DNA of 64,000 nucleotides, taken from contig CAWHOW010000016.1 in the NCBI GenBank assembly GCA_963831005.1, forward strand, positions 71,934 to 135,933, read 5' to 3'. The notes beneath the pieces were generated by a model, which worked only from the letters and a program-made list of their open reading frames with translations, was not told where the DNA came from and ran no database searches. The stretch's first letter is position 1, and the number at the start of each line of letters is the position of its first letter. Position numbers and translations under genes: made by a program. Origin of the DNA: an uncultured Bacteroidota bacterium (GTDB taxonomy: Bacteria > Bacteroidota > Bacteroidia > Bacteroidales > CG2-30-32-10). This document shows positions 2,956 through 31,445 of the stretch, one piece after another.

Positions 2956-3810
2956 TTATTCAACAACTATTTTTTCCAAAGTAGACTCATTATTTATTTT
3001 TAATCTTACAAAATAAATACCTTTTGCATAAGATGAAATATTGAATGTTTTATTCACTTCACCATTCATTCCGTTTTCTGAAATAAGGTCAGCAACTTTT
3101 CTACCGGTAATATCAATTATATCCATATTAACTGAAGAAATCCCTTTCAATGAGAATTTAACATTTAAGTTATCAGAAGAAGGATTAGGGAAAACCGAAA
3201 GATTATAATCCTTAGCAACTGCTTCAGCAATACCAACAGTAATATCAGAGCTAGGGGCATCGAAGTAGTGTAACAATAATCTCCAGATGTACGTACCATC
3301 ATTAATCAGCAGCTAATCCTGATGCATAAAATGTAACAGTGCCACTACCGGTAGCAGGAGCAGTCCATTTAAATGAAAAAGCATGTGAATCCAATGCGAT
3401 GTTTCCTGTTCCAGTTTGTACAACATACGACAAGCCATTGCAGATGATGCCTTAATGATTTTCAACATCAGGTGAAGAGTTAAAAGGGATAGCGTTCCAC
3501 CATTAGTAGTTGCATTTGTCAAAGCTTCGAAATCAAAACCAAATAGTGAATCTCGAGGAGTGCTATGAGAAACAGTAACAGTTACAGTGTATACAGAGTC
3601 GGGGTAATAGCCACCTGCAAGTGTAGGTACTGATGTAATGGCAATTGAGCCAGATCCTGAATTTACAGCAAAATCAGCGTGGCATTGTGTGCAGTCACCT
3701 TCAGAGTATGCACCGGTTTTACCAGCTTCTCCACCTGGCAAAAGAACTTTAAACGACATAGCACAAACCGCAACTATGGCAACTAAAATTAATGTAATTT
3801 TCTTTTTCAT
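2956..3810 (-). CDS. Second copy of the CxxCH + Reeler-like + T9SS CTD protein, broken by several single-base indels (ORFs 3313-3810 and 2956-3276)
   Basis: Near-identical to 3859-4701 (GDCTQCH, FGFDFEAL, PNPSSDNLNVKFSL...GIYFVRL); missing middle (HAFSFKWTAPATGSGTVTFY) is readable in shifted frames at 3260-3480. Confidence 0.8.
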
Positions 3811-3858
3811 TTCTATTTTATTTATGTTAATATTATTTAGTTAAGGATATGAATTTCA

Positions 3859-4701
3859 TTATTCAACAACTATCTTCTGAATAGTTATTTCATTATTAAT
3901 ACTTAATCTTACAAAGTAAATGCCTTTTTCATAAGATGAAATATTGAAAGTTTTATTTACTTCTCCATTCATTCCGTTTTCTGAAATAAGTTCAGCAACT
4001 TTTCTGCCGTTCATATCTATCATATCAATATTAACGGAAGAAATTCCATTTAATGAGAATTTCACATTTAAATTGTCAGATGAAGGATTAGGATAAACAG
4101 AGAAATTAATTTCCTTAGCAAGTACTTCCGAAATCCCAGCAGTATTTTGCATTACAGCCATAGAAGTAGTGTACACCCAGTCACCTGTAGTATTACCATC
4201 ATCATTAGCAGCTAAACCTGAAGTATAGAATGTTACAGTTCCAGTTCCGGTAGCCGGAGCAGTCCAGTAAAAGGAGAATGCATGTGAATTTTTGGTATTG
4301 TTACCTGTTCCTGTATGAACAACATCTGTAATAGCAGTAGATCCGTCAGCTTTCGTTTTCACATCAGTCGAAGGCGTTAACAAAGAAAGTGTTCCTCCGT
4401 TAGTAGTTGCATTTAATAATGCTTCGAAATCAAAACCGAAAAGCGAATCACCTGTCTGAGTCACAGTAACAGTTACTGTATATTTAGTACCAGGTACATA
4501 TCCGCCTGTAAGTGCAGGTACGGCTGTAATAGCAACTGAACCGGTTCCTGTATTTACTGCCCAATCGGAATGGCATTGGGTGCAATCGCCTTCAGAGTAT
4601 GCACCTGTTTTACCAGCTTCACCAGCGGGTATAAAAACTTTAAACGACATAGCGCAAACAGCAACTATGGCAACTAATGCTAATGTAATTTCCTTTTTCA
4701 T
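3859..4701 (-). CDS. T9SS-sorted protein with N-terminal CxxCH heme-c motif and Reeler-like (choice-of-anchor V type) domain
   Basis: Signal peptide, GDCTQCH, FSFYWTAPATGTGTVTFY, C-terminal VYPNPSSD...GIYFVRL...KIVVE. Confidence 0.85.
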   Translation of the reverse strand: MKKEITLALVAIVAVCAMSFKVFIPAGEAGKTGAYSEGDCTQCHSDWAVNTGTGSVAITAVPALTGGYVPGTKYTVTVTVTQTGDSLFGFDFEALLNATTNGGTLSLLTPSTDVKTKADGSTAITDVVHTGTGNNTKNSHAFSFYWTAPATGTGTVTFYTSGLAANDDGNTTGDWVYTTSMAVMQNTAGISEVLAKEINFSVYPNPSSDNLNVKFSLNGISSVNIDMIDMNGRKVAELISENGMNGEVNKTFNISSYEKGIYFVRLSINNEITIQKIVVE

Positions 4702-4885: not shown

Positions 4886-4925
4886 CAAAGATACTAATAA
4901 TATTTATACTATCGTATATATAGGA
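4886..4925 (-). promoter_or_regulatory. -7 box TATCTTTG (4886-4893, minus) with palindromic operator TACTAT-N7-ATAGGA (4907-4925)
   Basis: Operator is the exact reverse complement of 10691-10709. Confidence 0.7.
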
Positions 4926-5163
4926 AATATATTCATTTATTTTAACTAAAATTAACAATAGTTTCTTGTTATGAATTTTATAATACAAAACAATACATGT
5001 TCTAATATATTAGATTGCAATTATTTAAATGCTTATTTGCACTTCGAAAACATACTGTTTTATAAAAATTAAACTATTTATCCTAGTTAATAACTTTTTT
5101 CCGTTTTGATGTATTTTTGATAATTTATCGTATTTTTGCATTGAAATCTCTAAATACTAAAAG

Positions 5164-5949
5164 ATGCCCAAACAAGTTCAAAGATTACTTATCGCCTTTG
5201 TGATTTTTGTTGGCTTATTTTTGCTCGCCAGGCATTTTCTGGTGCCTGCAACATTTGGCGATCTTGGTCACTACCGAGCTGACGCCATTAAAGATGCCAA
5301 AGATCATGAAGCAAAATACCTTGATACCATAGCCTGCAGAAGCTGCCATAAAGGAATAGATTCAGTAAAATCAGGAGGTGTCCATCAGGGAATTAACTGC
5401 CAAACCTGTCATGGAGCAGGTTATCTGCATGCTAAAGATCCTAAAAAGAATCCATTGACCAAACCTACCGAGAGAGAGTTCTGTGGTAAATGCCATAATA
5501 TAAATGCTGCAAGACCTTCGTTTATGAAACAGGTTGACATAAGCAAGCATAATACCAAAAGCAAATGCATTGTTTGTCATAACCCTCATAGTCCGGGATT
5601 TAAAGCAGAACTTCCTAAATCATCCACTTCGGCAGATAATTCAGCAAAAAGCAATGGAACTCAAATTGATGATGCAACATGCGGCAAATGCCATAATACT
5701 GAATACACTAAAAAACAATCAGGCGTTCATAAGCATAATAATTGTGTAATGTGCCATGGTGCAGGTGATAAGCATATTACAAATCCTACAGCAAATGTTT
5801 TGGTAAAGCCTAAAGGAAGAGCATTCTGCGCTCAATCCCACGGTACAGGTTCAACTACAAGCGGCATTAAGCAAATTGATCTGAAAGTGCATAATCCTGA
5901 CGGTGACTGCACCGATTGCCATAACCCTCATAGTCCAATGGATTTTTAA
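5164..5949 (+). CDS. Membrane-anchored multiheme cytochrome c (7 CxxCH + 1 degenerate CxxSH), CbcS/NrfB-like position
   Basis: N-terminal TM; CRSCH, CQTCH, CGKCH, CIVCH, CGKCH, CVMCH, CAQSH, CTDCH in two 4-heme repeats. Confidence 0.9.
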   Translation: MPKQVQRLLIAFVIFVGLFLLARHFLVPATFGDLGHYRADAIKDAKDHEAKYLDTIACRSCHKGIDSVKSGGVHQGINCQTCHGAGYLHAKDPKKNPLTKPTEREFCGKCHNINAARPSFMKQVDISKHNTKSKCIVCHNPHSPGFKAELPKSSTSADNSAKSNGTQIDDATCGKCHNTEYTKKQSGVHKHNNCVMCHGAGDKHITNPTANVLVKPKGRAFCAQSHGTGSTTSGIKQIDLKVHNPDGDCTDCHNPHSPMDF

Positions 5950-5976
5950 TACCTTATTAATTTATCTTCTAAAGAA

Positions 5977-6807
5977 ATGGAAACTGAAAATAATAATAAG
6001 AAAAAAAATACAAGAAGGGATTTTCTGCTTGCTTCAACAGCAATAGCAGGAGGCTTATTATCCATGTCCCTTCTTAAACCCCTGAAAGCTTTTTCAGGCG
6101 GTTCAGATGTGAAATCATCTCCTGCTGATACTGCCAAAGGTAATGCAAAGAATGCTGCTGCCGGAACAGCTCCAAACGATCATTGGTACGGATTTTATTT
6201 CGATATAGAAAAATGTATCGGTTGTGGAAGCTGTGCCAAAGCATGCAAAACGGAAAATGATGTTCCATTAGAACCATTCTTTTACAGGACATGGGTGGAA
6301 CAATATACCGTTAAAAATGACCAAACCGTTTTGATCGAATCGCCTAACGGTGGAATTGACGGCTTTAAACAAAGCGTTCCCAAGGAGGATATTTTCAAGG
6401 CTTTTATAGTACCAAAGGCTTGTAATCATTGCGCCAAATCGCCATGCGAACAGGTATGCCCTGTAGGAGCATCCTATCATACACCCGACGGTGTTGTACT
6501 GGTTGATCAGAGTTATTGCATAGGTTGCGGATATTGCGTGCAGGCCTGTCCTTACGGATGCCGTTACATGCATCCCGAAAAGCATGTGGTTGACAAATGC
6601 ACTTTATGTTATCATAGAATTTCTAAAGGAATAGAACCTGCATGTGTGGAAGTATGCCCTACCGGAGCAAGAATGTATGGTGACCTGCATGATAAAAAAG
6701 GACCTCTTGTTGCATTTCTTAAAGACCATAATTGTCATGTGCTTAAGCCCCAGCTTAACACCAAGCCAAAACTATTTTATAACGGATTAAGCGAGGAGGT
6801 AAAGTAA
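5977..6807 (+). CDS. Tat-exported 4x[4Fe-4S] protein, NrfC/PsrB family
   Basis: TRRDFL Tat motif; CIGCGSCAKAC, CNHCAKSPCEQVCP, CIGCGYCVQACP, KCTLC...PACVEVCP. Confidence 0.93.
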   Translation: METENNNKKKNTRRDFLLASTAIAGGLLSMSLLKPLKAFSGGSDVKSSPADTAKGNAKNAAAGTAPNDHWYGFYFDIEKCIGCGSCAKACKTENDVPLEPFFYRTWVEQYTVKNDQTVLIESPNGGIDGFKQSVPKEDIFKAFIVPKACNHCAKSPCEQVCPVGASYHTPDGVVLVDQSYCIGCGYCVQACPYGCRYMHPEKHVVDKCTLCYHRISKGIEPACVEVCPTGARMYGDLHDKKGPLVAFLKDHNCHVLKPQLNTKPKLFYNGLSEEVK

Positions 6808-6808
6808 T

Positions 6809-7996
6809 ATGGAAAATTTTAACAACTTATACGAAGCGCTAAAACATGTAAGCGGGTTTATTTACCCTAACGAAGTAAAACTCCAGTGGTCTGTACTCAT
6901 CGTGCTCTATCCTTATATAACAGGGCTTGTTGCCGGTGCATTCATCCTTGCATCATTAAACAGAGTATTTAATGTAAAGGCCCTCCGCCCTACTTACGAA
7001 TTATCGTTACTTGCTGCATTCTCATTTCTTCTGGTAGCCACCATGCCATTAATAGCGCATCTTGGGCAACCTCAGCGTTTCTATGAGATCATGATGACAC
7101 CGCATTTAACTTCTGCTATGGCTATCTTCGGCTTTGTTTACTTATGGTATCTGATGGCTGTACTCTTACTAGAGATTTATTTTGATTACAGGCAAGACCT
7201 TTACCTGTGGTCGAACCAAAAGAAAGGATTATTAAGATGGATATACAGGTTCCTTACATTGGGCGTTTACGACGTTTCACCAAAAGCATTGAAATGGGAT
7301 GAAAAGCTTGGTTATATTATTACAGTGGTTGGTATTCCTTCCGCTTTCCTCCTGCATGGTTATGTAGGTTTCATCTTCGGCTCTGTTAAAGCTAATCCTT
7401 GGTGGTCGTCGGTAATGATGCCTGTGATATTCCTGTTCTCCGCTATGGTTTCAGGCATTGCACTTGTATTGTTCCTGTATTTTGCAGTGAATATCATCCG
7501 CAAACAGAAACTTGATCTGGCTTGCTTGGATGCTATGGGCAAGTATCTTTTCTACATTCTTATTTTAGATTTCACGCTCGAGTCGCTCGACCAGATACAC
7601 CGCGTTTATGTGGCTGAAGAATCATTTGATATTATTTCGATATTAATGACAAAATTATTCTGGACACTTTCCATCATGCAGGTATTGCTGGGCACACTGA
7701 TACCATTGGTCACTCTTTTTATCTTCCAGCTTAAGAAGCCAAAGGAAGTGATAAGAAAAGTAAGTTATTTTATTATTAGCCTTCTGATTTTGGTTGGCAT
7801 ATTCTTTATGCGCTGGAACGTGGTTATCGGCGGACAGTTATTCTCTAAATCATTTGCGGGATTCACTACCTATAAAGGCGAATTCTTCGGCAGCGAAGGT
7901 TTCTTTGAGGCATTGGTTCTGATGATACTACCATTTGGCATTTTTGCTTTTATGCTGTGGTTCTTACCTCCATGGAAGAAGCAACACCAGTTGTAA
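6809..7996 (+). CDS. NrfD/PsrC-family quinol-interacting membrane subunit
   Basis: YPYITGLVAGAF, HLGQPQR, LHGYVGFIFG...NPWW, MRWNVVIGGQ; about 10 TM; follows NrfC-like gene. Confidence 0.92.
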   Translation: MENFNNLYEALKHVSGFIYPNEVKLQWSVLIVLYPYITGLVAGAFILASLNRVFNVKALRPTYELSLLAAFSFLLVATMPLIAHLGQPQRFYEIMMTPHLTSAMAIFGFVYLWYLMAVLLLEIYFDYRQDLYLWSNQKKGLLRWIYRFLTLGVYDVSPKALKWDEKLGYIITVVGIPSAFLLHGYVGFIFGSVKANPWWSSVMMPVIFLFSAMVSGIALVLFLYFAVNIIRKQKLDLACLDAMGKYLFYILILDFTLESLDQIHRVYVAEESFDIISILMTKLFWTLSIMQVLLGTLIPLVTLFIFQLKKPKEVIRKVSYFIISLLILVGIFFMRWNVVIGGQLFSKSFAGFTTYKGEFFGSEGFFEALVLMILPFGIFAFMLWFLPPWKKQHQL

Positions 7997-8299: not shown

Positions 8300-9942
8300 A
8301 TGCTTCAGGACGAGAACAAAACTGACCTTGAAAACATCTTATCAAAGTTAAATTCTCTCGAAAGCCGGATGATCCGCATCGAAGAAGAACTTGGTATTGA
8401 TTCAAGTATTTCCTCGTCCGCTGCATCTGAAAAGGTCGGCATTGATGGCATAAATCAAGACTCCGCAAAAGAAGAGAATGGTTTTGAATCGCGCATCGGC
8501 GGTTACGGTCTTGCACTCCTTGGCAATATTGTTTTTCTTTTCGGACTGATATTCTTTTCCAATTACATCCAGGGTTCAGGCTATCCTGCATTATCCGGCA
8601 TCTTCGGATATGCCTGCGTGGCAGGCATATTTATCCTTGCCCATTTTGCTAAAAAGCGTATCCACTATCTTTCCGTTATGTTCGAAATGGTTGGGTTCAT
8701 CATGGTATATTATGCTACTATGAGGCTGCATTTCTTTTCCGCTCAGCCGCTCATAAGCGACATTTATTTTTCCAGTTTGCTGCTTCTTATAGTGCTGGTT
8801 TCACTGTTTTATTACACTGTCCGCAAGCGTTCGGAACTGTTTGCTGTCACTGTATCAGTACTTATAATAGTGTCGGGAGTGATAAGCGATTCCTCTGACA
8901 TGATGCTTGACTCGGCTGTGCTTGCTTCAGCAGCCTCGTGTATTTCTTTTTCAAATATAACTGGAAAAGCTCTTTGCTGTCGTCCATCTTTATGGTGTAC
9001 CTCGCTTTTGTAATATGGTTCATGAAAAACCAGCAGGCAATAGCAGCAAAGACAGATGTTATCCATAACAACTACAGCTATATATATCTTTTTGCCTGCG
9101 CCGTTATTTTTTCTCTTACCTGCCTTGTCCGCGCAAGGGAGAAGCTTACAACTGTTTACCTGATGACGGCCGCATTGTTTAACGGCATCATGTTCTCCTG
9201 CTTGCTGCTGCTATATACACCTGCCTTATACGCCGATATTTTCACCACGCTCTTTATTGTCATTTCCATATTCTGCATGATATATTCCATCCTGTTGAAA
9301 TCCTATTCTGCATGGAAATTTGCAAAAGCCTTTTATGCCATGTATGGTTTTGTGGCTATCAGCATTTCCGTTTACGGCATCTTCAAGTTTCCTTATACTT
9401 ACCTGTTGCTTACCCTGCAAAGCCTGTACGTGATAAGCATTGCCCTCTGGTTTCGCTCCAAGCTGATGATATCTATGAACACTTTTCTTTTCCTGGCTTT
9501 GCTTATAGTGTATTTTATCAGCGGCGACATAAGGGATTCCATAGATTTCTCTTTTGCCGCCACTGCCTTCATTTCGGCTGCGGTTATTGACTGGCGCAAA
9601 AAATATCTTGAAATAGAAGCCGACCTGATGCGCAATGTTTACCTGGCTACGGCTTTTTGCTCCACCCTGTTTGCATTATACAAATCCCTTCCGGCACAAT
9701 TCATCACCTTGTCGTGGACAGTACTGGCGATAGGATATTTTGTTTACAGCATCATTTTTAAAAACGTGCGCTATCGCTGGATGGCTATTATCACCATGAT
9801 TGCTGCCGCTTTTTATTTATTCCTTTTCGACCTTTCACGCATTTCACTTGTGTACAGGATAATTGCATTCCTTTTCCTTGCCATCATTTCTATCAGCATC
9901 TCGCTTTATTACAACAAGCCAAAGAAAGACGTTGAAGAATAA
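8300..9942 (+). CDS. Polytopic membrane protein (DUF2339-like), frameshifted near 8935 (ORFs 8300-9013 + 8938-9942)
   Basis: Coiled N-terminus, FESRIGGYGLALLG, many TM helices, C-terminal YLFLFDLSRISLVYRIIAFL; the two ORFs overlap and continue one hydrophobic pattern. Confidence 0.7.
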
Positions 9943-10574: not shown

Positions 10575-10690
10575 TACAGCAAACTGCTTTTTAGTATAGT
10601 TATCCAACAGGATAAAAGAATGTTTTAAGAAATTTATCTTATTAAGCATATTGTCTTCTTAAAAATTTGTTATTTTTTTCATAATATATT

Positions 10691-10709
10691 TCCTATATAT
10701 ACGATAGTA
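10691..10709 (+). promoter_or_regulatory. Palindromic operator TCCTAT-N7-ATAGTA upstream of the imcH-like operon
   Basis: Identical to reverse complement of 4907-4925, with extended flanking identity. Confidence 0.7.
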
Positions 10710-10920
10710 TTAATATTTTTTGTAAATTGCAGCCAAATTTCAGGCTTATTTTAGCTTTACCGAAGTAGAAAAATTGATGTATTTCATTGTAAACACTTAC
10801 TATTGCTTGTTAAAACATTCACATCCTGTACTAATTGCCAGGATGTCATTTTGATTTACATTTACCCTGACCTGAATTTGCTAATTTTTAAAAAAAAGTA
10901 ACATTATATAAAGTTCAAAG

Positions 10921-12420
10921 ATGAAACTACCGGACTCATATCGTAACCCAATATCCATACTGGGTACCATCATTGCTTCTATTGCATTCACTACTATAGT
11001 TCTTTTAATAGCAATGACATATTTCTTTCACGTTGGCAGTGTTTATTTCGACCTTTTTACATTCATAGTCGTTCCCATTTTCCTGGTTGGCGGACTTGTA
11101 CTTATCGCCTTCGGGATGTTCATGACATGGAGAAAAAAGAAAAGAGGCGGTAAACGATTTCCCGAGATCAACCTCAATGATAAAAAACAACGTAATGCTG
11201 CTACTATATTTATTGTTGTCACGGTGGTTTTTATAATTATGACAGTAATTGGAACCAATGAAGGCATTAAGTATTCTGAGTCAAGAGAATTCTGCGGAAC
11301 GATGTGTCACAAGGCTATGAACCCTGAATATGTGGCTTATCATCATGGCCCTCATGCAGAAGTTTCGTGTTCAGATTGTCATGTTGGTGAGGGAGTAGAT
11401 TATTTTGTAAAAGCAAAAATATCAGGGATGCGCCAGTTGTATAAATATATCACAGGCAGTTATAACAGGCCAATCAGTACGCCTATCACTAACCTGCGCC
11501 CTGCAAGCCAGACCTGCGAAAAATGCCACTGGCCCCAGAAATTCTATACGTATCTATTAAGAAGTGAAAAATATTTCCTCACAGATTCAGCCAATACTGA
11601 ATGGGATGTGGTACTTAAGATGAAAGTTGGTCCTGATAACCCCGCGCTTGGACTTGCAGAAGGCATACACTGGCATATCAATTCCGACATAAAGATAGAA
11701 TACAAGGCTAACGAAAAGAGAGATACTATTTACTGGGTAAAGGTCATCAATTCCAAAACAGGAAAAGAAACTGTATTTCTTGATGAAGCACAGACATCAA
11801 TCAAGATGAATGATATCGACAAGATTGAATCGCGCACCATGGACTGCATGGACTGCCATAACCGTCCTGCGCATGAATACCGTTCTCCTTCAAATTTTGT
11901 AAACAGTTTATTGATCGCTAAGAAGATTCCAGCCTATCTGCCATGGATAAAAAAGATCGCTATGGATGCCTTATGGAACAAAGAATATTCAACATTGGAT
12001 AGTGCAAAAGAAGGGCTCTCTGATTATATCCTGGGAGCTTACAAGAAGAATCATCCACAGATTTTTACGAAATATAATAAAGAGATAAAAGATGCTATCT
12101 CCTATATACAGGAAGAATATTCCCATAATGTTTTCCCTGAAATGAAGATAAACTATTCAACGTATCCAAGGCATATAGGTCATCTTGAAACTAATGGCTG
12201 TTTCAGGTGCCATAACAATACCTTTAAATCTGCCGATGGAAAGGTCATCTCAAATAACTGCGACTTATGCCATACCATACTTGCACAGGGAGCAAAGGAT
12301 ACAGTGAAATATACGAACATCAGCAAATCATTGGAGTTCAAACACCCCATTGATATTGGCAATATATGGAAAGAAGCCCATTGTCGCGACTGCCATAATG
12401 AATTATACAAAACTCATTAA
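10921..12420 (+). CDS. imcH: ImcH-like inner-membrane heptaheme cytochrome c (NapC/NirT domain)
   Basis: Three N-terminal TM helices; FCGTMCH (CX3CH), CSDCH, CEKCHWP, CMDCHNRPAH, CFRCH, CDLCH, CRDCH; architecture matches Geobacter ImcH. Confidence 0.85.
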   Translation: MKLPDSYRNPISILGTIIASIAFTTIVLLIAMTYFFHVGSVYFDLFTFIVVPIFLVGGLVLIAFGMFMTWRKKKRGGKRFPEINLNDKKQRNAATIFIVVTVVFIIMTVIGTNEGIKYSESREFCGTMCHKAMNPEYVAYHHGPHAEVSCSDCHVGEGVDYFVKAKISGMRQLYKYITGSYNRPISTPITNLRPASQTCEKCHWPQKFYTYLLRSEKYFLTDSANTEWDVVLKMKVGPDNPALGLAEGIHWHINSDIKIEYKANEKRDTIYWVKVINSKTGKETVFLDEAQTSIKMNDIDKIESRTMDCMDCHNRPAHEYRSPSNFVNSLLIAKKIPAYLPWIKKIAMDALWNKEYSTLDSAKEGLSDYILGAYKKNHPQIFTKYNKEIKDAISYIQEEYSHNVFPEMKINYSTYPRHIGHLETNGCFRCHNNTFKSADGKVISNNCDLCHTILAQGAKDTVKYTNISKSLEFKHPIDIGNIWKEAHCRDCHNELYKTH

Positions 12421-12488
12421 TAGTGGAAGAATTTATTAGAAACAATAATTCGTTTGCATAATAAGAGGATCATTTTAAAACATTAAAT

Positions 12489-14940
12489 ATGACTAAAGAA
12501 TACAGACCGGTAAAAAGTGTTTTGCTCCTTCTTATCAGTTTATTTTTTATAATTGGTAAACTAACGGGGCAGTCAAACGATGACTGCTTAACTTGCCATG
12601 AAGATCAAACAATGACTGCTAAATGGCAGGGTTCAACGATTTCTTTATATGTTAATAAAGCTAACTTTTATAATTCTGTTCATAAGAATGTTGCCTGTGC
12701 TTCCTGTCATAAAGATGCTGCCGTAAAAGACTTCCCTCACCCCGAGAACCTCAAGCCTGTTGAATGCGGCAGTTGCCATGCGGGTTTCCAGGAGCTCGTC
12801 AACAACGATATGCATCACAAATTAGTGAACCTGCCGCCAGATAAAGCTCCTACCTGCAAGATATGCCCACGGTACACATGAAATTGTGAAGCCTTCTTCA
12901 ATTCCCAACAAAGCTGTTGCTATTTGCGGGAAATGCCATAAGGTAGATAAGCTCTCCGCTCCATACCATACTGATAATCTGGTTGAAAATAATTGCCTCA
13001 ACTGTCATAAGAAAAAAGATTACAGGGCTATGCTTTCCAAGTCAGTTCATACTAAACTGAAATGCTCCAATTGCCATGGATATGTAGTTAACAACCTTGC
13101 CACTCACCGTACTCTGCCGAAAGATGAAGCTACAACTGATTGTTATTTATGCCATGCAGCCATTGCAGCAGAACATAAAGAAAGCATACACGGACTTGCG
13201 CTGTCAGAAGGCATCAACGAAGCTGCACAATGCTGGGATTGTCATGGAACGCATAACATCTTAAAAGTTACAAATGACAGCAGCAAGGTATCTGCCAAGA
13301 ATCTTCCAGCTACTTGCGGCAAATGCCATGACGATTCATTATTTATTTTGAAGCATAACTTCACTGTTAAAAACCCGGGGAAAATGTATTCCCAATCGGT
13401 TCACTGGAAACTTGTAAATGGAGGGAGCAAGGATGCCCCGTCTTGCATAAGCTGCCATAGTGCACATAGTATCAAGAACAGGGTTCAGCAGAACACTACA
13501 ATTTCAAGCGTTGCAGTACCTGACCTTTGCGGGAAATGCCATGCTAAAATTGAAGAGGAGTACAAAAAATCCATTCACTGGTTAGCTGTGAAGAAAGGGG
13601 TGCGTGAAGCGCCTTCGTGTAATGACTGTCATAGTGAGCATGCTATTCATGCAGTAAATACAAATCACAAAAGAGCTGCCATAGAGAAATTACAGGAAGA
13701 AACCTGCCTGCAATGCCATCAGAATTTATTGCTTTCACAGCGTTACGGAATGGCTGCCAACAATGCTAAAAGTTATCAGGACAGTTATCATGGCTTAGCT
13801 GTGGCGAGAGGAGATACCAATGCTGCCATGTGCATAGATTGCCACGGAGTGCACAGCATATTGCCCGCAAATCATAAGAACTCCACCATCAACCCAAAGA
13901 ATGTAACAGCTACCTGCAAGAAATGTCATCACGATGCTACAGAGATATTTGCAAGAAGTTATTCTCATATCACCGACAAGAAAACACCGGCCGGACATGT
14001 GGAAAATGTTGTAAGAAACATTTATTTCTGGTTAATAATTATTGTTGTTTTCGGAATGATTGTGCATAACCTTATTATTTTATTTTATGAATTAAAAGAA
14101 AGATACAAGAAATCAAAAGAGGAGATACGGATACCACGGTTGACAAGAAATGAATTGGTACAGCATACAATATTATTTGTATCCTTTATTATTCTTGCAA
14201 TAACAGGGTTTCAGCTTAAATTCCCTGATAGTTGGTGGAGTCATGGATTGCAGTATTTTGGGCTTACTGAAAATGTGAGACGTGAAATTCACAGATGTTC
14301 AGCTACAATTATGATCACGCTTTCATTGTATCATGTAATATATTTAATTGTCACTTCAAGAGGCCGTGAAGTATTAAAAGGAATGTTACCAAAGCTTGCT
14401 GATTTTAAACTGGCATGGACAAATATGCTCTTCTACCTGCGATTAAAGAAACAAGAACCTGAATTTGATAATTTTACTTATATAGAAAAAGTGGAGTACT
14501 GGGCTTTGATCTGGGGAACTGTTATAATGGGGCTTACTGGTTTTGTTCTTTGGTTCCCTACAATTGTAGGTAACTGGGCGCCGGTGTGGTTCATTAAAGT
14601 TTGTGAAATAGTGCATTTCTATGAAGCTATACTGGCAACACTAGCTATTATAATATGGCATTGGTTCTTCGTCATGTTCCATCCCAAAGAATATCCGGTA
14701 AGCTTTACGGTAATAAACGGTCAAATGACACTCAGGCATTATAAAGCAGAACACAGATTGCAAATTGAACGAGTTTATAAAGAATGGGCTGATATGAAAG
14801 CCGGAAAACTCAGTGTGAAGAAGCTCAGCAATTTTACCAAACTATTTATTGCTGCTATTGAAAAAGCAGGATATAATGCGGATGAGTTTTTTCAGAAAGA
14901 AATGACCAATGAAGAAAACCATGCCGGTGATAATAAATGA
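12489..14940 (+). CDS. CbcL-like multiheme c (16 CxxCH) fused to FdnI/HydC-type cytochrome b; +1 frameshift in CCC at 12866-12868
   Basis: Removing one C restores CKICHGTHEIVKP; C-terminal LVQH, ITGFQLKFP, IHR, EKVEYWALIWG, VHFYEAILA, WHWF. Confidence 0.87.
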
Positions 14941-14959
14941 TAAACCTTATTATTAAATA

Positions 14960-17741
14960 ATGATGGGAAATAACGTTAACAAATGGATGGCATTACTATT
15001 TGCATGCTTTTCACTAAGCATAGTAAATGCCATTGCACAGACAAATGAGGACTGCCTTACCTGTCACGAAGATGCAACCTTATCAAAGGTGAGCAATGGC
15101 AAAACAATTTCTTTGTTTGTCAATAAGAATATCTTAGGAGGTTCTGTACATGCCGGATTAAAATGTGTTTCCTGTCATGCTGATGCTGCTGTTACAGATT
15201 TCCCCCATCCAGAAAACCTTAAAGAAGTTGAATGCGGGAAATGTCACGGTACTGAACTGATACAATACAGTGGAGGTGTTCACGGGCAGGCTTCAAAGTT
15301 AAATTCTCCTTATGCTCCTACTTGTAAAGATTGTCACGGAAAACATGACATACTGGCTTCCGCTATTCCTACGTCCCGTACCTTTAAATTCAATATTCCT
15401 GCATTATGCGGCAGATGTCATAAAGAAGGCTCTCCTGTATCCAACATGTACGATATTTCACAAACCAATATACTTGATAACTATAGCGAGGGCATACACG
15501 GTGTAGGCTTATTGAAAAAAGGTCTTATTGTTTCTGCAACCTGTAACGACTGTCATGGGAATCATCTTATACTGCCTCATACAAGCCCTAATTCGACAGT
15601 GTCACCTCAGAGGATTGCAAGCACATGCATGAAATGCCATACAAAGATCGAAGAGGTGCATAAAAAAATAATTAAGAACGAACTTTGGGAAACAAAACCC
15701 GGAGCCATCCCTGCCTGCTCGGCATGCCATCCTCCTCATAAAGTATCGATAGATGAAAGCGTTCAATCTATTGCAGATATTGCCTGTTTAAAATGTCATC
15801 AGGATCCGGAAGTACACAAAACTGTTGATGGTAAAGACATATCGTTAACAGTAAAAGTGTCCGATATGGAGAGTTCCGTGCATAAGAATATTTCATGTAT
15901 TAAATGCCATTCGGATTGTGATATTACGTTGTCACGACCCTGTTCAACTACTAAATCTGTTGACTGTTCCAACTGCCATATCTCTGTTGCCGACCTTTAT
16001 TTTACAAGCGGTCACGGTAAAGCATATCTTAAAAAAGAAAAGAATGCGCCATTCTGCACTGATTGCCACGGCACCCATAATATAAAGACAAGATATGATG
16101 ACACTTCACCTACTTACAGGGCTAATATTCCGGGGCTTTGCGGAAAATGTCATAATGAGAACGGGAAAGCTGTAAAGACCACTAAATTAAAAGAGGTTAA
16201 TGCTTATGCTGATTATTCATTAAGTGTCCATGGGAAGGGATTAATGGAGCAGGGACTTTTGGTAAGCGCTGTTTGCTCCGACTGTCACACTTCGCACCAT
16301 ATACTTAAAGAATCGGATACAGCTTCTTCAGTAAATCCGAAGAATATTTCCCTTACATGCTCAAATTGCCATAAGAGCATTTATGAGGAATATATTGTAA
16401 GTGACCATTCCATTAATAAAGCTGACGGGAAACACAAATACCCAACCTGTGCCGATTGCCATTCTGCTCATGTTATCACGGCAATAGATAACGATAAATT
16501 TATGACACAGATTACTACTCAGTGCGGAAGCTGTCATGAAAAATTAGCGGAAACCTATCTTGAAACCTATCATGGGAAAGCATATCTTCTGGGATACCTC
16601 AAAGCAGCAAAATGTTCCGATTGCCATGGTTCGCATAATATCTTAAAAGTTAACAATCCAAATTCAGCAGTAGGATTTAAGAATATTGTGAATACATGCA
16701 GGAAATGTCACAGTTACGCAAATCTGCGATTTACAGGTTACCTGACACATGCTACACATAATGCCAATAATGTTTTGTTCTATACCTTCTGGGGAATGAC
16801 GTTGTTGTTGCTTGGCGTATTTGGGTTCTTTGGCCTGCATACCATGTTATGGATACCAAGGTCAATTATGGAAGCAAGGAAAAAACGCAATCATAAGAAG
16901 CCTGAAGGAAAAGCGGAATATATAAGGCGATTTACACGCAGCCAGAGGGTGACACATATTTTTGTCATAGTTAGCTTCTTATCACTTGCTTTAACAGGCA
17001 TGACATTGAAGTTCGCCCATATGCACTGGGCAAGGATAATTGCCGGATTCTTCGGAGGAGTACGCGCTGGCAGGAACTATTCACAGGATGGCGGCAATAA
17101 TTACATTCGGATATTTTATATATCACGTTTTCTCATTGTTGCGCGAAAAGAAGCAGAAAAAAGAAAGTCTGATAAAATTTATATTCGGGAAAAATTCACT
17201 GATGTTCAACAAGCAGGATATACGAGATTTTATTGGAACTGTTAAATGGTTCATGGGCAGGGGGCCACGACCGCTATACGGCAGATGGACATATTGGGAG
17301 AAGTTCGATTACATGGCTGTATTCTGGGGTGTTGCAGTAATCGGCTTATCAGGATTGATCCTTTGGTTTCCCGAAATATTCACAAGCGTTCTTCCCGGCT
17401 GGATGATAAACGTGGCGCAGATCATACATAGCGATGAAGCCTTGTTAGCTGTCGGTTTCATTTTCACCATTCACTTCTTTAACACGCATCTTAGACCCGA
17501 ATCATTCCCGATGGACACAGTAATATTTACTGGTCATGTTCCGCTGGAAGAATACAAAGCCGACAGGCCGCGCGAATTTGCAGAACTGGAAGAATCAGGC
17601 AAGTTGGAAGATGTAAGAGTAACCACTGAAATAACAAGCTCCTGGTTAAAGATAGTGAAGACAGCAGGATTCATTTTCCTGAGTATCGGACTTATACTGG
17701 TACTGCTTATACTGTTCTCGCTGATAACAGGATCGTATTAA
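14960..17741 (+). CDS. Second CbcL-like multiheme c (19 CxxCH) fused to cytochrome b; +1 frameshift near 17063
   Basis: 19 CxxCH counted; QRVTH, LTGMTLKF, then IHRMAA, YGRWTYWEKFDYMAVFWG, IIHSDEALLAVGFIFTIHFF in shifted ORF 17040-17741. Confidence 0.87.
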
Positions 17742-29003: not shown

Positions 29004-29151
29004 GTTACAATGGTAGTGTCCTGAAAAGGGTGTAAGTTACCTTCCTTTTAAAGAAAGGCGTGGGAAATGGGGTGAATGAGGAAATGGTGGCAGTTTTAAT
29101 TTTATTGAGAAAATTGCTTTACTTTTGTTTTTAAAATTATATTGTGATTTT

Positions 29152-30540
29152 ATGCTAACAAAAGAATATATAAAAGACTTAAAAATTAATGGTAATGGTG
29201 CATTTAGCGAACTTGTTCATAGCAATTCATCAAATGCAGGAAACCTAATTTTTATTCTTCAAAACTTAGGGCATTTACCTGAAAATTTTGATGGTAAATG
29301 GTTACTGGATTTAACTCAAAGTAAATTTTCACAAGTAAGGGAACTTGCTGTAAAAAATATTGCTAAATTGACCCAAGAAGAATATATTGAAGTATTATAT
29401 AATATTATCCAAACTGACACAGATACAAATGTACGAAGAGAAGCTGTTTCAGCAATTGGCAGAATGAGAAATATAAAAAACAAAAAGATACTTTTAAAAA
29501 TTCTTGAAGATAAAGACCCCAAAATTGTATGCCAGGCTATACGTGGTTTATTAGTTTTTAAAAATGATAAAATAATTGAAAACAGTTTAAGATCACTTGT
29601 TAATCACGAAAACGAAATGATAAGAACTGTTATTTATAAAGAATATTTTGCTAAAGAAAAAGAACATAAAAAAGAAAATGAATTACCACATGCTGAAACA
29701 TATGAATATCTTAAGAATGTCGTTATTAATGGTGACGTTCGAGAAATATTAAAAAATGTTCCTGATGAAAGTATTCATTTAACTTTTACATCACCCCCTT
29801 ATTACAATGCCCGTGATTATTCAATTTATCCAAGCTATGTAGCGTATTTGAAATTTCTTGAAGAAGTATTTTTAGAAACTTATAGAATTACGAAAGAAGG
29901 AAGGTTTTTAATTATAAATACTTCTCCAATCATTATTCCACGAGTTAGCCGTTCACACTCAAGCAAACGTTATCCTATTCCGTTTGATATTCATTATTTT
30001 TTAATACAAATGGGTTGGGAATTTATTGATGATATAATTTGGTTAAAGCCTGAATATAGTGTTAAGAATAGAGTAGCAGGTTTTGAACAACATCGTAAGC
30101 CATTAGCATATAAGCCAAATTCAATTACTGAATATTTAATGGTTTATCGCAAACAAACCGAAAAGTTATTAGATTGGAATATGCGGCAATATGATTATAA
30201 AACTGTTGAAGAAAGTAAAGTTCCTGAGGGATATGAAACAACAAATGTTTGGAAAATAGATCCTAAATTTGATAAAATTCATTCTGCTGTATTTCCAAAA
30301 GAATTATGTAAAAGAGTTATCGAATATTATTCATTTAAAAATGATTTGATTTTTGATCCATTTGCAGGTAGTGGCACTTTAGGCAGAACTGCAAGGAGTT
30401 TAGGGAGAATGTACTTCTTAACTGAGCAAGAACCAACATATTTTGAATATATGAAAACCTTTTTACAAAACGAAAGTTTATTTAAAGAAAAAGCTTCTTC
30501 ATTTTTAACATTAAACGAATTTAAAGAAACAATAAAATGA
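29152..30540 (+). CDS. DNA methyltransferase (beta class, probable N4-cytosine) with N-terminal HEAT repeats
   Basis: VRELAVKNIA, VRREAVSAIG, IVCQAIRGL HEAT repeats; FTSPPYY catalytic motif before DPFAGSGT. Confidence 0.9.
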   Translation: MLTKEYIKDLKINGNGAFSELVHSNSSNAGNLIFILQNLGHLPENFDGKWLLDLTQSKFSQVRELAVKNIAKLTQEEYIEVLYNIIQTDTDTNVRREAVSAIGRMRNIKNKKILLKILEDKDPKIVCQAIRGLLVFKNDKIIENSLRSLVNHENEMIRTVIYKEYFAKEKEHKKENELPHAETYEYLKNVVINGDVREILKNVPDESIHLTFTSPPYYNARDYSIYPSYVAYLKFLEEVFLETYRITKEGRFLIINTSPIIIPRVSRSHSSKRYPIPFDIHYFLIQMGWEFIDDIIWLKPEYSVKNRVAGFEQHRKPLAYKPNSITEYLMVYRKQTEKLLDWNMRQYDYKTVEESKVPEGYETTNVWKIDPKFDKIHSAVFPKELCKRVIEYYSFKNDLIFDPFAGSGTLGRTARSLGRMYFLTEQEPTYFEYMKTFLQNESLFKEKASSFLTLNEFKETIK

Positions 30541-31445
30541 CACTTACCGAACAAGTAGCAAAGAATATTATCAGAAAACTTTTAAAAGGTGATGATTACA
30601 GAATTGAAGTTGTAACACTTATTAATGCTGAATTTTTGCAGTTTGCAATTGATTTTTTCAAGAAAGTCATTGATGCAAAATTAAAAAGTGATAACATTAC
30701 AGTCGATTGGTATAAAAAAGCATTTTTAAATCCGGCTTTACCTGCTAAAGAAATTGCAATCAATTCAGGATTGAATAAAAAGACAATTCATAATATGTTT
30801 AATTCTTCAACAAAGGAAATTATTATTGATGCTGCAAATGAACATTATGATGTGCTTTTTGAAAGCATAAAAAATTTAGTTGAGAACGAACATGAACTGG
30901 ATTTGACGCTTACAATAAAATTTAAAGGTGTTAGCGTTGATTTAAACGTAAGTGAAAGTTTAATTATAATCAATACGCTTGCTGTAAAACGAGCTGAACT
31001 AAGAGGCGGTTTGTGGAGTACAGCAGGTAAAAGAGTTGAAAACCCATTAATGAAAACACTTTGCAAACTATATTCTGTAAGCTCTGAAAATTACAATGCA
31101 AAATTCGTTAAAGACAAAGCTAAAGGGTTTGACAGAGAAATAGATTTCTATTTAATCAATAAGGGTAAAGAATATTTATGTGAAGTAAAACTTATGGGAA
31201 GTGGAAACCCAGAGAGTGCAGATGCGGTTATAGCGAGAGCATCAGATGTGTTTATTGCAGATAAACTTTCTATTCAAAATAAACATCAACTTGATTCACT
31301 AAAAATCAATTGGGTCGAATTACGCTCAAATGATGGTTATAAAAGATTTAAATTTGTATTAGAAAACATTGGCATTGAACATAAGGATTATAATGGAAAT
31401 ATTGATAATGATTTAGAACAAATATTTAATGAAGTATTTGCGTAA
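30537..31445 (+). CDS. Type II restriction endonuclease, CfrBI family
   Basis: LRGGLWSTAGKRVE, REIDFYL, CEVKLMGSGNPESAD (PD-D/ExK); ATGA overlap with the MTase. Confidence 0.82.
   Translation: MTLTEQVAKNIIRKLLKGDDYRIEVVTLINAEFLQFAIDFFKKVIDAKLKSDNITVDWYKKAFLNPALPAKEIAINSGLNKKTIHNMFNSSTKEIIIDAANEHYDVLFESIKNLVENEHELDLTLTIKFKGVSVDLNVSESLIIINTLAVKRAELRGGLWSTAGKRVENPLMKTLCKLYSVSSENYNAKFVKDKAKGFDREIDFYLINKGKEYLCEVKLMGSGNPESADAVIARASDVFIADKLSIQNKHQLDSLKINWVELRSNDGYKRFKFVLENIGIEHKDYNGNIDNDLEQIFNEVFA

Follow-up and report, generated by a model that had tools for sequence, protein, structure and literature searches.

The 64,000-nt window analyzed here, part of contig CAWHOW010000016.1 (assembly GCA_963831005.1) of an uncultured Bacteroidota bacterium, contains on its minus strand, at positions 2956-4701, two tandem paralogous genes, referred to below as copies A and B. 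Copy A encodes a protein that combines an N-terminal heme-c-type motif with a Reeler-like domain and a type IX secretion system (T9SS) sorting domain, and a surface protein carrying one covalent heme c is a plausible interpretation of it. At the DNA level the copies share 88% mean column identity; their 5' thirds and the thirds coding for the C-terminal domain (CTD) align without indels, while several indels of 1-3 nt and many substitutions are found in the middle. The motif GDCTQCH occupies residues 38-44 in both copies and follows an identical hydrophobic, signal-like N-terminus. The first-pass annotation of this DNA had described tandem paralogs with a common GDCTQCH after the signal sequence, and the open reading frames (ORFs) and the DNA alignment bear this out. 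Its wording "both paralogs", however, is right for the N-terminus and the motif and wrong beyond them, because only copy A is intact and copy B is disrupted in this assembly. The features of the pair are as follows.

3859-4701, minus strand: copy A, an intact 280-aa gene with predicted signal peptide, choice-of-anchor V/Reeler-like domain and T9SS type A CTD
4570-4584, minus strand: codons C40-T-Q-C43-H44, the heme-c-type motif of copy A (sequence, homolog alignment)
4159-4629, minus strand: choice-of-anchor V/Reeler-like beta-sandwich domain of copy A, residues 25-181 (hidden Markov models (HMMs), AlphaFold2 (AF2) model, fold matches)
4315-4317, minus strand: codon of His129 (VVHTG), a candidate distal or metal ligand, as suggested by its conservation
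3865-4098, minus strand: T9SS type A C-terminal sorting domain of copy A, residues 202-279 (HMMs)
2956-3810, minus strand: copy B, a disrupted paralog with an N-terminal ORF at 3313-3810 (165 aa) and a CTD ORF at 2956-3276 (106 aa) in one frame, separated by a garbled middle
2910-2928, no strand assigned: GC-rich hairpin whose stem, read on the minus strand, precedes a stretch of 8 T; likely the terminator of the A-B unit (hairpin scan and sequence)

The two copies probably form one transcription unit, since the 48-nt spacer between them contains no hairpin, whereas a hairpin with a T-run is situated after copy B.

The hydrophobic N-terminus of copy A, read off the sequence as residues 1-19, is a predicted signal peptide. 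The protein scores 92.4 bits against the NCBIfam model of choice-of-anchor V domains (NF041895; cut-off 42; residues 25-181), 27.4 bits against Pfam Reeler (PF02014; cut-off 21; residues 66-161), and 60.9 bits against the T9SS sorting domain model PF18962 (Por_Secre_tail; cut-off 27; residues 202-279). The order of parts proposed in the first-pass annotation (signal peptide, CxxCH, Reeler-like/choice-of-anchor V domain, T9SS CTD) is thereby confirmed above all three cut-offs, and the comparison with choice-of-anchor V and Reeler HMMs that it had called for came out above cut-off in both. In a six-frame search of the genome copy A reaches 93.6 bits to NF041895. Its CTD is also recognized by TIGR04183 (49 bits, cut-off 23), has a profile match to solved T9SS CTDs (8glk_D, E 6e-11), and is structurally similar to the mirolase CTD (VIA-align Z 10.9). 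The score against the related model NF041894 (MXAN_6652 family) is only 30.9 bits, compared to the cut-off of 200. A lipoprotein signal at C16 was considered and rejected, the corresponding homolog column being mostly A, G, L or V. A third paralog, with the motif CVSCH, is encoded elsewhere in the genome (contig C28).

By these profile matches copy A clearly belongs to an already catalogued, unstudied large bacterial family. With residues 22-195 as the phmmer query, the count of representative clusters is 4,467 for an E limit of 1e-3 and falls to 1,569 if the limit is set to 1e-10; in the sample of the phylum, 73 of 301 genomes carry NF041895 above cut-off. A Protein Atlas search yielded Reeler-annotated clusters only. 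As in other members, the domain of copy A directly follows the signal peptide, a sorting signal is present at the C-terminus, and Cys-Xn-Cys-His is invariant; the last feature was seen in our analysis and is not taken from the description of the model. The sub-group of copy A mostly has CxxCH, whereas the best-scoring members from other classes mostly have CxCH.

The conservation of the motif is strict. The invariant columns in the alignment of 91 homologs are C40, C43, H44, W146, and P149; after 29 members of other classes were added, C40, C43, and H44 were retained in 120 of 120 sequences, position 146 was aromatic in all of them, and G89 (119/120), P149 (119/120), Asn/Asp166 (112/120), and D174 (110/120) were nearly as well kept. 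Judged from these alignments, CxxCH of copy A is no chance motif. It also has a fixed place: among 143 further representatives (the newly returned ones among the best 150 listed matches), 142 carry C-Xn-CH, the first Cys having its median at residue 40 and occurring within the first 60 residues in 139 of the 142, in proteins of up to 1608 aa. The motif-bearing domain is N-terminal in all proteins surveyed. The spacing of the cysteines is, on the other hand, variable, and the following numbers of sequences were counted for each number of residues between them.

120 listed homologs: one residue 2, two 83, three 4, four 24, five 3, no motif 4 (fragments)
143 further representatives: one residue 0, two 98, three 13, four 30, five 1, no motif 1 (N-terminal fragment)
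30 best-scoring NF041895 loci of the phylum sample, 29 of them readable: one residue 22, two 5, three 0, four 2, five 0

Thus, the annotated CxxCH stands for copy A, where it is the canonical CTQCH, while for the family as a whole the motif has to be written as C-x(1-5)-C-H. Among natural heme c sites, spacings of two to four residues are known.

A second conserved histidine could complete the coordination of a heme iron. The best-conserved one is His129, which is kept in 78 of 91 homologs and in 103 of 120. The first-pass annotation had pointed to another residue, the His of HAFSF (H140), as a distal ligand common to both paralogs. This candidate was rejected on its conservation, with H140 kept in only 22 of 91 homologs; moreover, HAFSF of copy B is out of frame, as it lies in a shifted frame.

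The genome (5.15 Mb, 64 contigs, 96.7% complete) encodes the machinery that such a protein would need. A 1051-aa CcsBA fusion protein, containing ResB and Cytochrom_C_asm domains, is present, as is the SprA translocon (SprA_N, 556 bits) together with PorP/SprF. Copy A therefore brings together CTQCH (residues 40-44), export signals, and a heme lyase in the same genome, and with its CTD and the T9SS machinery it has the features expected of a T9SS type A cargo.

These observations are best accommodated if copy A is a Sec-exported, T9SS-sorted choice-of-anchor V protein carrying one covalent heme c, a plausible reading to which we assign a probability of roughly 0.45. According to it, the pre-protein would cross the inner membrane by Sec, and CcsBA (System II) would link one heme c covalently through C40 and C43; H44 would be its proximal ligand and H129 the likeliest distal one. 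The folded holoprotein would then pass the SprA translocon by means of its type A CTD and end up on the cell surface or be released, where it may act as a small redox protein partnering the multiheme cytochromes of the locus. The outer-surface cytochromes of the MtrC/OmcA type from metal reducers would be its functional analogs: the predicted location is likewise extracellular, and copy A lies near, and shares an upstream element with, multiheme genes including one MtrC/MtrF-like. It differs from them in its single motif, where they have ten, in its all-beta fold, which is unrelated to theirs, and in its predicted export by T9SS.

The upstream element just mentioned links copy A to respiratory cytochromes. 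Two exact copies of the 28-mer AATATATTTCCTATATATACGATAGTAT are present, one on the minus strand at 4906-4933 and the other on the plus strand at 10683-10710, in equal orientation relative to the respective genes, and the similarity around both copies extends to about 44 nt. The features concerned are listed below.

4906-4933, minus strand: 28-nt element, 205-232 nt upstream of the start codon of copy A (exact match to 10683-10710)
10683-10710, plus strand: second site of the 28-nt element, located 211-238 nt upstream of a NapC/NirT-like cytochrome gene
10921-12420, plus strand: 499-aa membrane cytochrome with a NapC/NirT/NrfH-like N-terminus, six CxxCH and one CGTMCH (Pfam Cytochrom_NNT)
5164-7996, plus strand: divergent operon encoding a 7-CxxCH cytochrome, an NrfC-like 4Fe-4S protein, and an NrfD-like membrane subunit

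With up to three mismatches allowed, two matches to the element were found in the window compared to none in 100 shuffles (0 expected by chance). Genome-wide, the 19-nt core has exactly three sites at up to three mismatches. The third one (contig C33, 14652-14679; L008, 5653-5680) has one mismatch in the core and four in the 28-mer, for which about 0.01 chance sites per genome are expected by a rough estimate at up to four mismatches. It is located 171-198 nt upstream of an operon (L008, 5851-9775) that is divergent from ccsBA and encodes a 159-aa T9SS-CTD protein without CxxCH, followed by two multiheme cytochromes, one of 545 aa with five CxxCH and an MtrC/MtrF-like domain, the other c554-like with four CxxCH. 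A weaker copy of the element (six mismatches) is found beside the third site, at 124 nt upstream. The core was not found, at up to three mismatches, in the ortholog contigs or at the third paralog of copy A. The element shared by three loci is the distinctive addition of this locus; it is a candidate regulatory site, and its distribution suggests co-regulation of the genes behind it. The first-pass annotation spoke of the same operator as at imcH: the exact 28-mer is indeed upstream of both genes, but the gene name is not confirmed by the model scans, in which no ImcH model matched the 10921-12420 protein; the NCBIfam NrfH and NapC models all fall below cut-off.

By its position only, a candidate regulator is encoded at 108-944. 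This 278-aa ORF combines an Rrf2-family DNA-binding domain (residues 3-132) with a response-regulator receiver domain (148-231) without a stop between them; this may be a fusion of an unusual kind, or a stop may have been lost. It is followed by a gene for a histidine kinase (1013-2341).

The annotated divergence of the gene pair from an NrfCD-type operon is correct, the 5164-7996 operon being on the opposite strand. Further multiheme cytochromes are encoded at 10921-17741. In the NapC/NirT-like cytochrome, CGTMCH (Cx3CH) is near the N-terminus; if it binds heme, the lyase may handle non-canonical spacing. The region 14960-17741 contains a gene for a 19-CxxCH multiheme cytochrome and an overlapping ORF (17040-17741) with a cytochrome b domain, which probably are one frame-changed gene: the intact paralog (12886-14940) can be aligned first with frame 1 and, further on, with frame 2, and the frame change falls near 17050-17079.

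The predicted structure is of high confidence. The AF2 model of the whole copy A has a mean predicted local distance difference test score (pLDDT) of 91.9, and the model of the N-domain alone (residues 22-195) has pLDDT 94.1 with a predicted template modeling score (pTM) of 0.89. In this model the domain is a Reeler-type beta-sandwich of roughly 160 residues with an N-terminal arm that would carry the invariant Cys-Xn-Cys-His. The first Foldseek match is the Reeler domain of F-spondin (3COO; E 4.1e-7, TM 0.54/0.66), and Spondin-1 chains are matched at the profile level (E 1.8e-6). The leading rows of the VIA comparison with the N-domain model are given below.

F-spondin Reeler domain: Z 10.5, 114 residues aligned, model range 12-166
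Cytochrome f, 2JXM_B: Z 10.3, 144 residues aligned, model range 3-168, from chain residue 1
Cytochrome f, 4OGQ_C: Z 9.7, 151 residues aligned, model range 3-174, from chain residue 1

When the whole model is used, the cytochrome f matches have Z 10.7 (143 residues aligned) and 10.2. The model comparison thus ties between the F-spondin Reeler domain and the large domain of cytochrome f.

The similarity to Reeler domains (PF02014; F-spondin 3COO, 2ZOT) raises the alternative that the cysteines serve only as a structural disulfide, the protein being a surface adhesin or its domain a binder of ligands, and CxxCH and the cytochrome neighborhood being coincidental. Copy A exceeds the Pfam threshold and has a similar fold; animal Reeler domains provide its closest sequence and Foldseek matches. 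Animal Reeler domains are extracellular binding modules without heme that contain disulfides. What defines the family is a choice among surface anchors, a frequent feature of adhesins; its longer members are fused to SprB, PKD or FG-GAP domains, and its gene neighborhoods are heterogeneous. However, the animal domains have no CxxCH, and their alignment begins only at model residue 12; of the 103 family members, only 49 match the Pfam model when E values up to 10 are allowed. A structural disulfide would leave unexplained the invariant His after the second Cys (120/120), the strict position of the motif beside the signal peptide (139/142), and the promoter element common to two cytochrome loci. 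We consider this explanation to have a slim chance.

Cytochrome f is the other partner of the tie. In its large domain (2JXM chain B, 4OGQ chain C), an N-terminal arm of a beta-sandwich bears one heme c motif near the mature N-terminus, an arrangement that is also predicted for copy A; copy A has neither the small inserted domain nor the C-terminal membrane anchor. The cytochrome f rows align the most residues; as they start at chain residue 1 and model residue 3, they cover the motif-bearing arm, while most other VIA rows begin at model residue 24 or later. When the family was compared with 22 cytochrome f sequences by hhalign, the C..CH motifs were in register, with a probability of 59.6% and over 21 columns only. 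This short match, together with the failure of PF16639 (Apocytochr_F_N) to find anything in the genome at E up to 10, makes the likeness to cytochrome f a fold-level lead of the model and not membership; PF16639 is also not among the top 25 of the 107 families matched by 103 family members. In cytochrome f the alpha-amino group of the mature N-terminal residue is the sixth ligand of the heme. An equivalent role for the predicted mature N-terminus of copy A (AMS|F20, 20 residues before C40) was tried and is not supported, because this terminus is variable among homologs, in which the segment between the hydrophobic core and the first Cys has neither a constant length nor constant first residues; residue 1 of cytochrome f is matched near residues 24-26, and not at residue 20, by hhalign as well as by VIA.

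A bolder form of the heme reading would take the domain as a true monoheme cytochrome with a cytochrome-f-like all-beta fold and unusually free Cys spacing, delivered to the cell surface by T9SS as the outermost component of extracellular electron transfer and co-regulated, by way of the common 28-nt element, with the ImcH-like quinol-oxidizing and the MtrC-like cytochromes. We hold this to be improbable; if true, it would mean a T9SS-dependent route of cytochrome export in Bacteroidota and a bacterial relative for the otherwise isolated cytochrome f.

The conserved residues and the variable spacing are also compatible with Cys-Xn-Cys-His as a non-heme metal or redox site, in which copper or iron would be bound by His44, His129, and Asp174, with the cysteines serving as ligands or as a redox-active disulfide. 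Copy A would then be a surface protein for metal binding or handling and no cytochrome. Cysteines one to five residues apart are more easily reconciled with a thiolate pair or a disulfide loop than with a motif recognized by a lyase, and His129 (103/120), Asp174 (110/120), and Asn/Asp166 (112/120) make a plausible His/His/Asp set. Copper-binding YcnI is among the closest folds (VIA Z 8.9-9.2; Foldseek E 7.4e-4); the copper-binding Ig-like domains of the YcnI/CopC type (7ME6, 7MEK) are likewise secreted beta-sandwiches of similar size, and the conserved His and Asp of copy A could form such a metal site. Their alignment (model residues 35-167), however, leaves out the motif-bearing arm, and there is no sequence similarity. 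In all 120 sequences the second Cys is directly followed by a His, which is the signature of heme c sites, the near relatives of copy A have only spacings of two to five residues (two to four in 141 of 142), and the upstream element of copy A is common to cytochrome loci and not to metal-homeostasis genes. No copper-resistance family was detected near 20 family loci (within about 2 kb, E up to 1e-12). We regard a metal site of this kind as possible but rather unlikely.

The reading of copy A as a monoheme protein has itself to be weighed against several observations. First, it is weakened by the variable Cys spacing, which ranges from one to five residues across the family: among the 29 NF041895 members that score best in other classes of the phylum, 22 have CxCH, and we know of no heme c attached to CxCH. 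Literature searches combining CXCH with cytochrome c maturation, and those on CXXXCH, CXXXXCH, Ccm, and b562, gave no match on CxCH among those listed. His129 is replaced in 15 of the 120 sequences (by Gln in 12 and by Asn in three). Second, cytochrome models do not recognize these proteins. None matches copy A at E up to 1 in the Pfam and NCBIfam scans, and among the 103 family members Pfam cytochrome models match at most six, with best E of 0.048 to 3.1; Cytochrome_CBB3 matches six (best E 0.17) and Paired_CXXCH_1 four (best E 0.048). Third, the structural argument is limited: cytochrome f is not among the Foldseek matches listed up to rank 50, its VIA score is tied with that of the Reeler domain (10.5) and is only 1-2 above those of generic immunoglobulin-like (Ig-like) folds (Z 8-9), and the empty PF16639 search points the same way.

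Fourth, genomic context offers little beyond this lineage. The first-pass annotation had held that homologs mainly in genomes without cytochrome c maturation would speak against heme; all 73 carrier genomes of the phylum sample have CcsA, a co-occurrence which is uninformative because CcsA is present in 297 of the 301 genomes. Within about 2 kb of the 20 family loci no cytochrome family was found at E up to 1e-12, and another CxxCH-bearing ORF within 6 kb was observed at only three of the 20. Finally, none of the papers listed for "choice-of-anchor" is on type V. Searches for the Reeler domain together with cytochrome gave only animal papers among the matches listed, and nothing was found for T9SS with multiheme cytochromes, nor for the combination of type IX secretion with c-type cytochromes and extracellular electron transfer, while the search for cytochrome f-like proteins brought nothing relevant.

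The surroundings of the close orthologs count in favor of the heme reading. Three of four ortholog contigs (61-69% identity), two of these three being near-identical, have a gene for a class-I cytochrome c lipoprotein immediately upstream. As gene neighborhoods are heterogeneous family-wide and no cytochrome families were seen in the 20 loci, the respiratory link is, as far as gene context indicates, specific to this lineage and not a trait of the family. At two of the 20 loci (L171, 1926-4649, and L168, 5971-7760) the choice-of-anchor V gene adjoins a gene for a DUF5777 outer-membrane beta-barrel, and in the former a YceI-like gene and a 120-aa CxxCH ORF lie between the two.

Copy B, as assembled here, is a disrupted duplicate, which represents a pseudogene in decay or else an error of local assembly. 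Read in the frame that begins at 3810, it is no longer similar to copy A after GGTLSLLT, and a stop follows at 3313. In a three-frame reading, homology can be followed only along the frame path 0, 2, 0, 1, 0, with at least four frame changes overall and one in-frame TAA in the frame-2 stretch. The N-terminal piece reaches 36.9 bits to NF041895, below the cut-off of 42.

There is, in our estimate, an even chance that the second paralog is intact in the organism, the frame changes at 3248-3500 being errors of assembly or consensus. In a contig from run X1 over 3248-3410, single bases are missing at 3293 and at 3304, exactly the extra bases that cause two of the frame changes; however, this contig is short (165 nt, depth 2.4) and may come from a different strain, and the contigs compared give no cover at 3411-3900, where the remaining lesions are situated. 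The N-terminal and CTD parts of copy B have zero indels relative to copy A, and a relative (L043) keeps two intact tandem paralogs of 278 and 285 aa. An intact 280-aa protein with the N- and C-termini of copy B is encoded on another contig (P0002), but it is a mosaic whose middle matches copy A and may itself be a chimeric assembly. The gene at 14960-17741 also shows a frame change, and the assembly may therefore carry indel errors; long ORFs elsewhere in the window (1932 and 1227 aa) are, on the contrary, intact, and the middle of copy B is highly diverged by substitution, as expected for decay. Apart from this question, the mosaic structure of P0002 could reflect either gene conversion between the tandem copies or chimeric assembly.

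Two further regions of the window should be mentioned. At 8300-9942, two overlapping ORFs of the same strand (237 and 334 aa) may represent one frameshifted membrane-protein gene; the second of them has a weak match to the C-terminus of DUF2339. The region 29125-31445 encodes a likely type II restriction-modification pair, namely a HEAT-repeat DNA methylase and, after it, a CfrBI-like restriction endonuclease.

If the conserved site proves to be a copper site or a mere disulfide, copy A is an ordinary surface protein of a known family. If it binds heme, thousands of choice-of-anchor V/Reeler-like proteins would be unrecognized all-beta surface cytochromes, and standard cytochrome screens would miss the members with non-canonical Cys spacing. 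The two other loci of the 28-nt element both encode respiratory multiheme cytochromes, one of them beside the heme lyase gene. Since copy A has this element in common with cytochrome loci, it is a good candidate for a first biochemical test of the family and of whether holo-cytochromes can be exported by T9SS.

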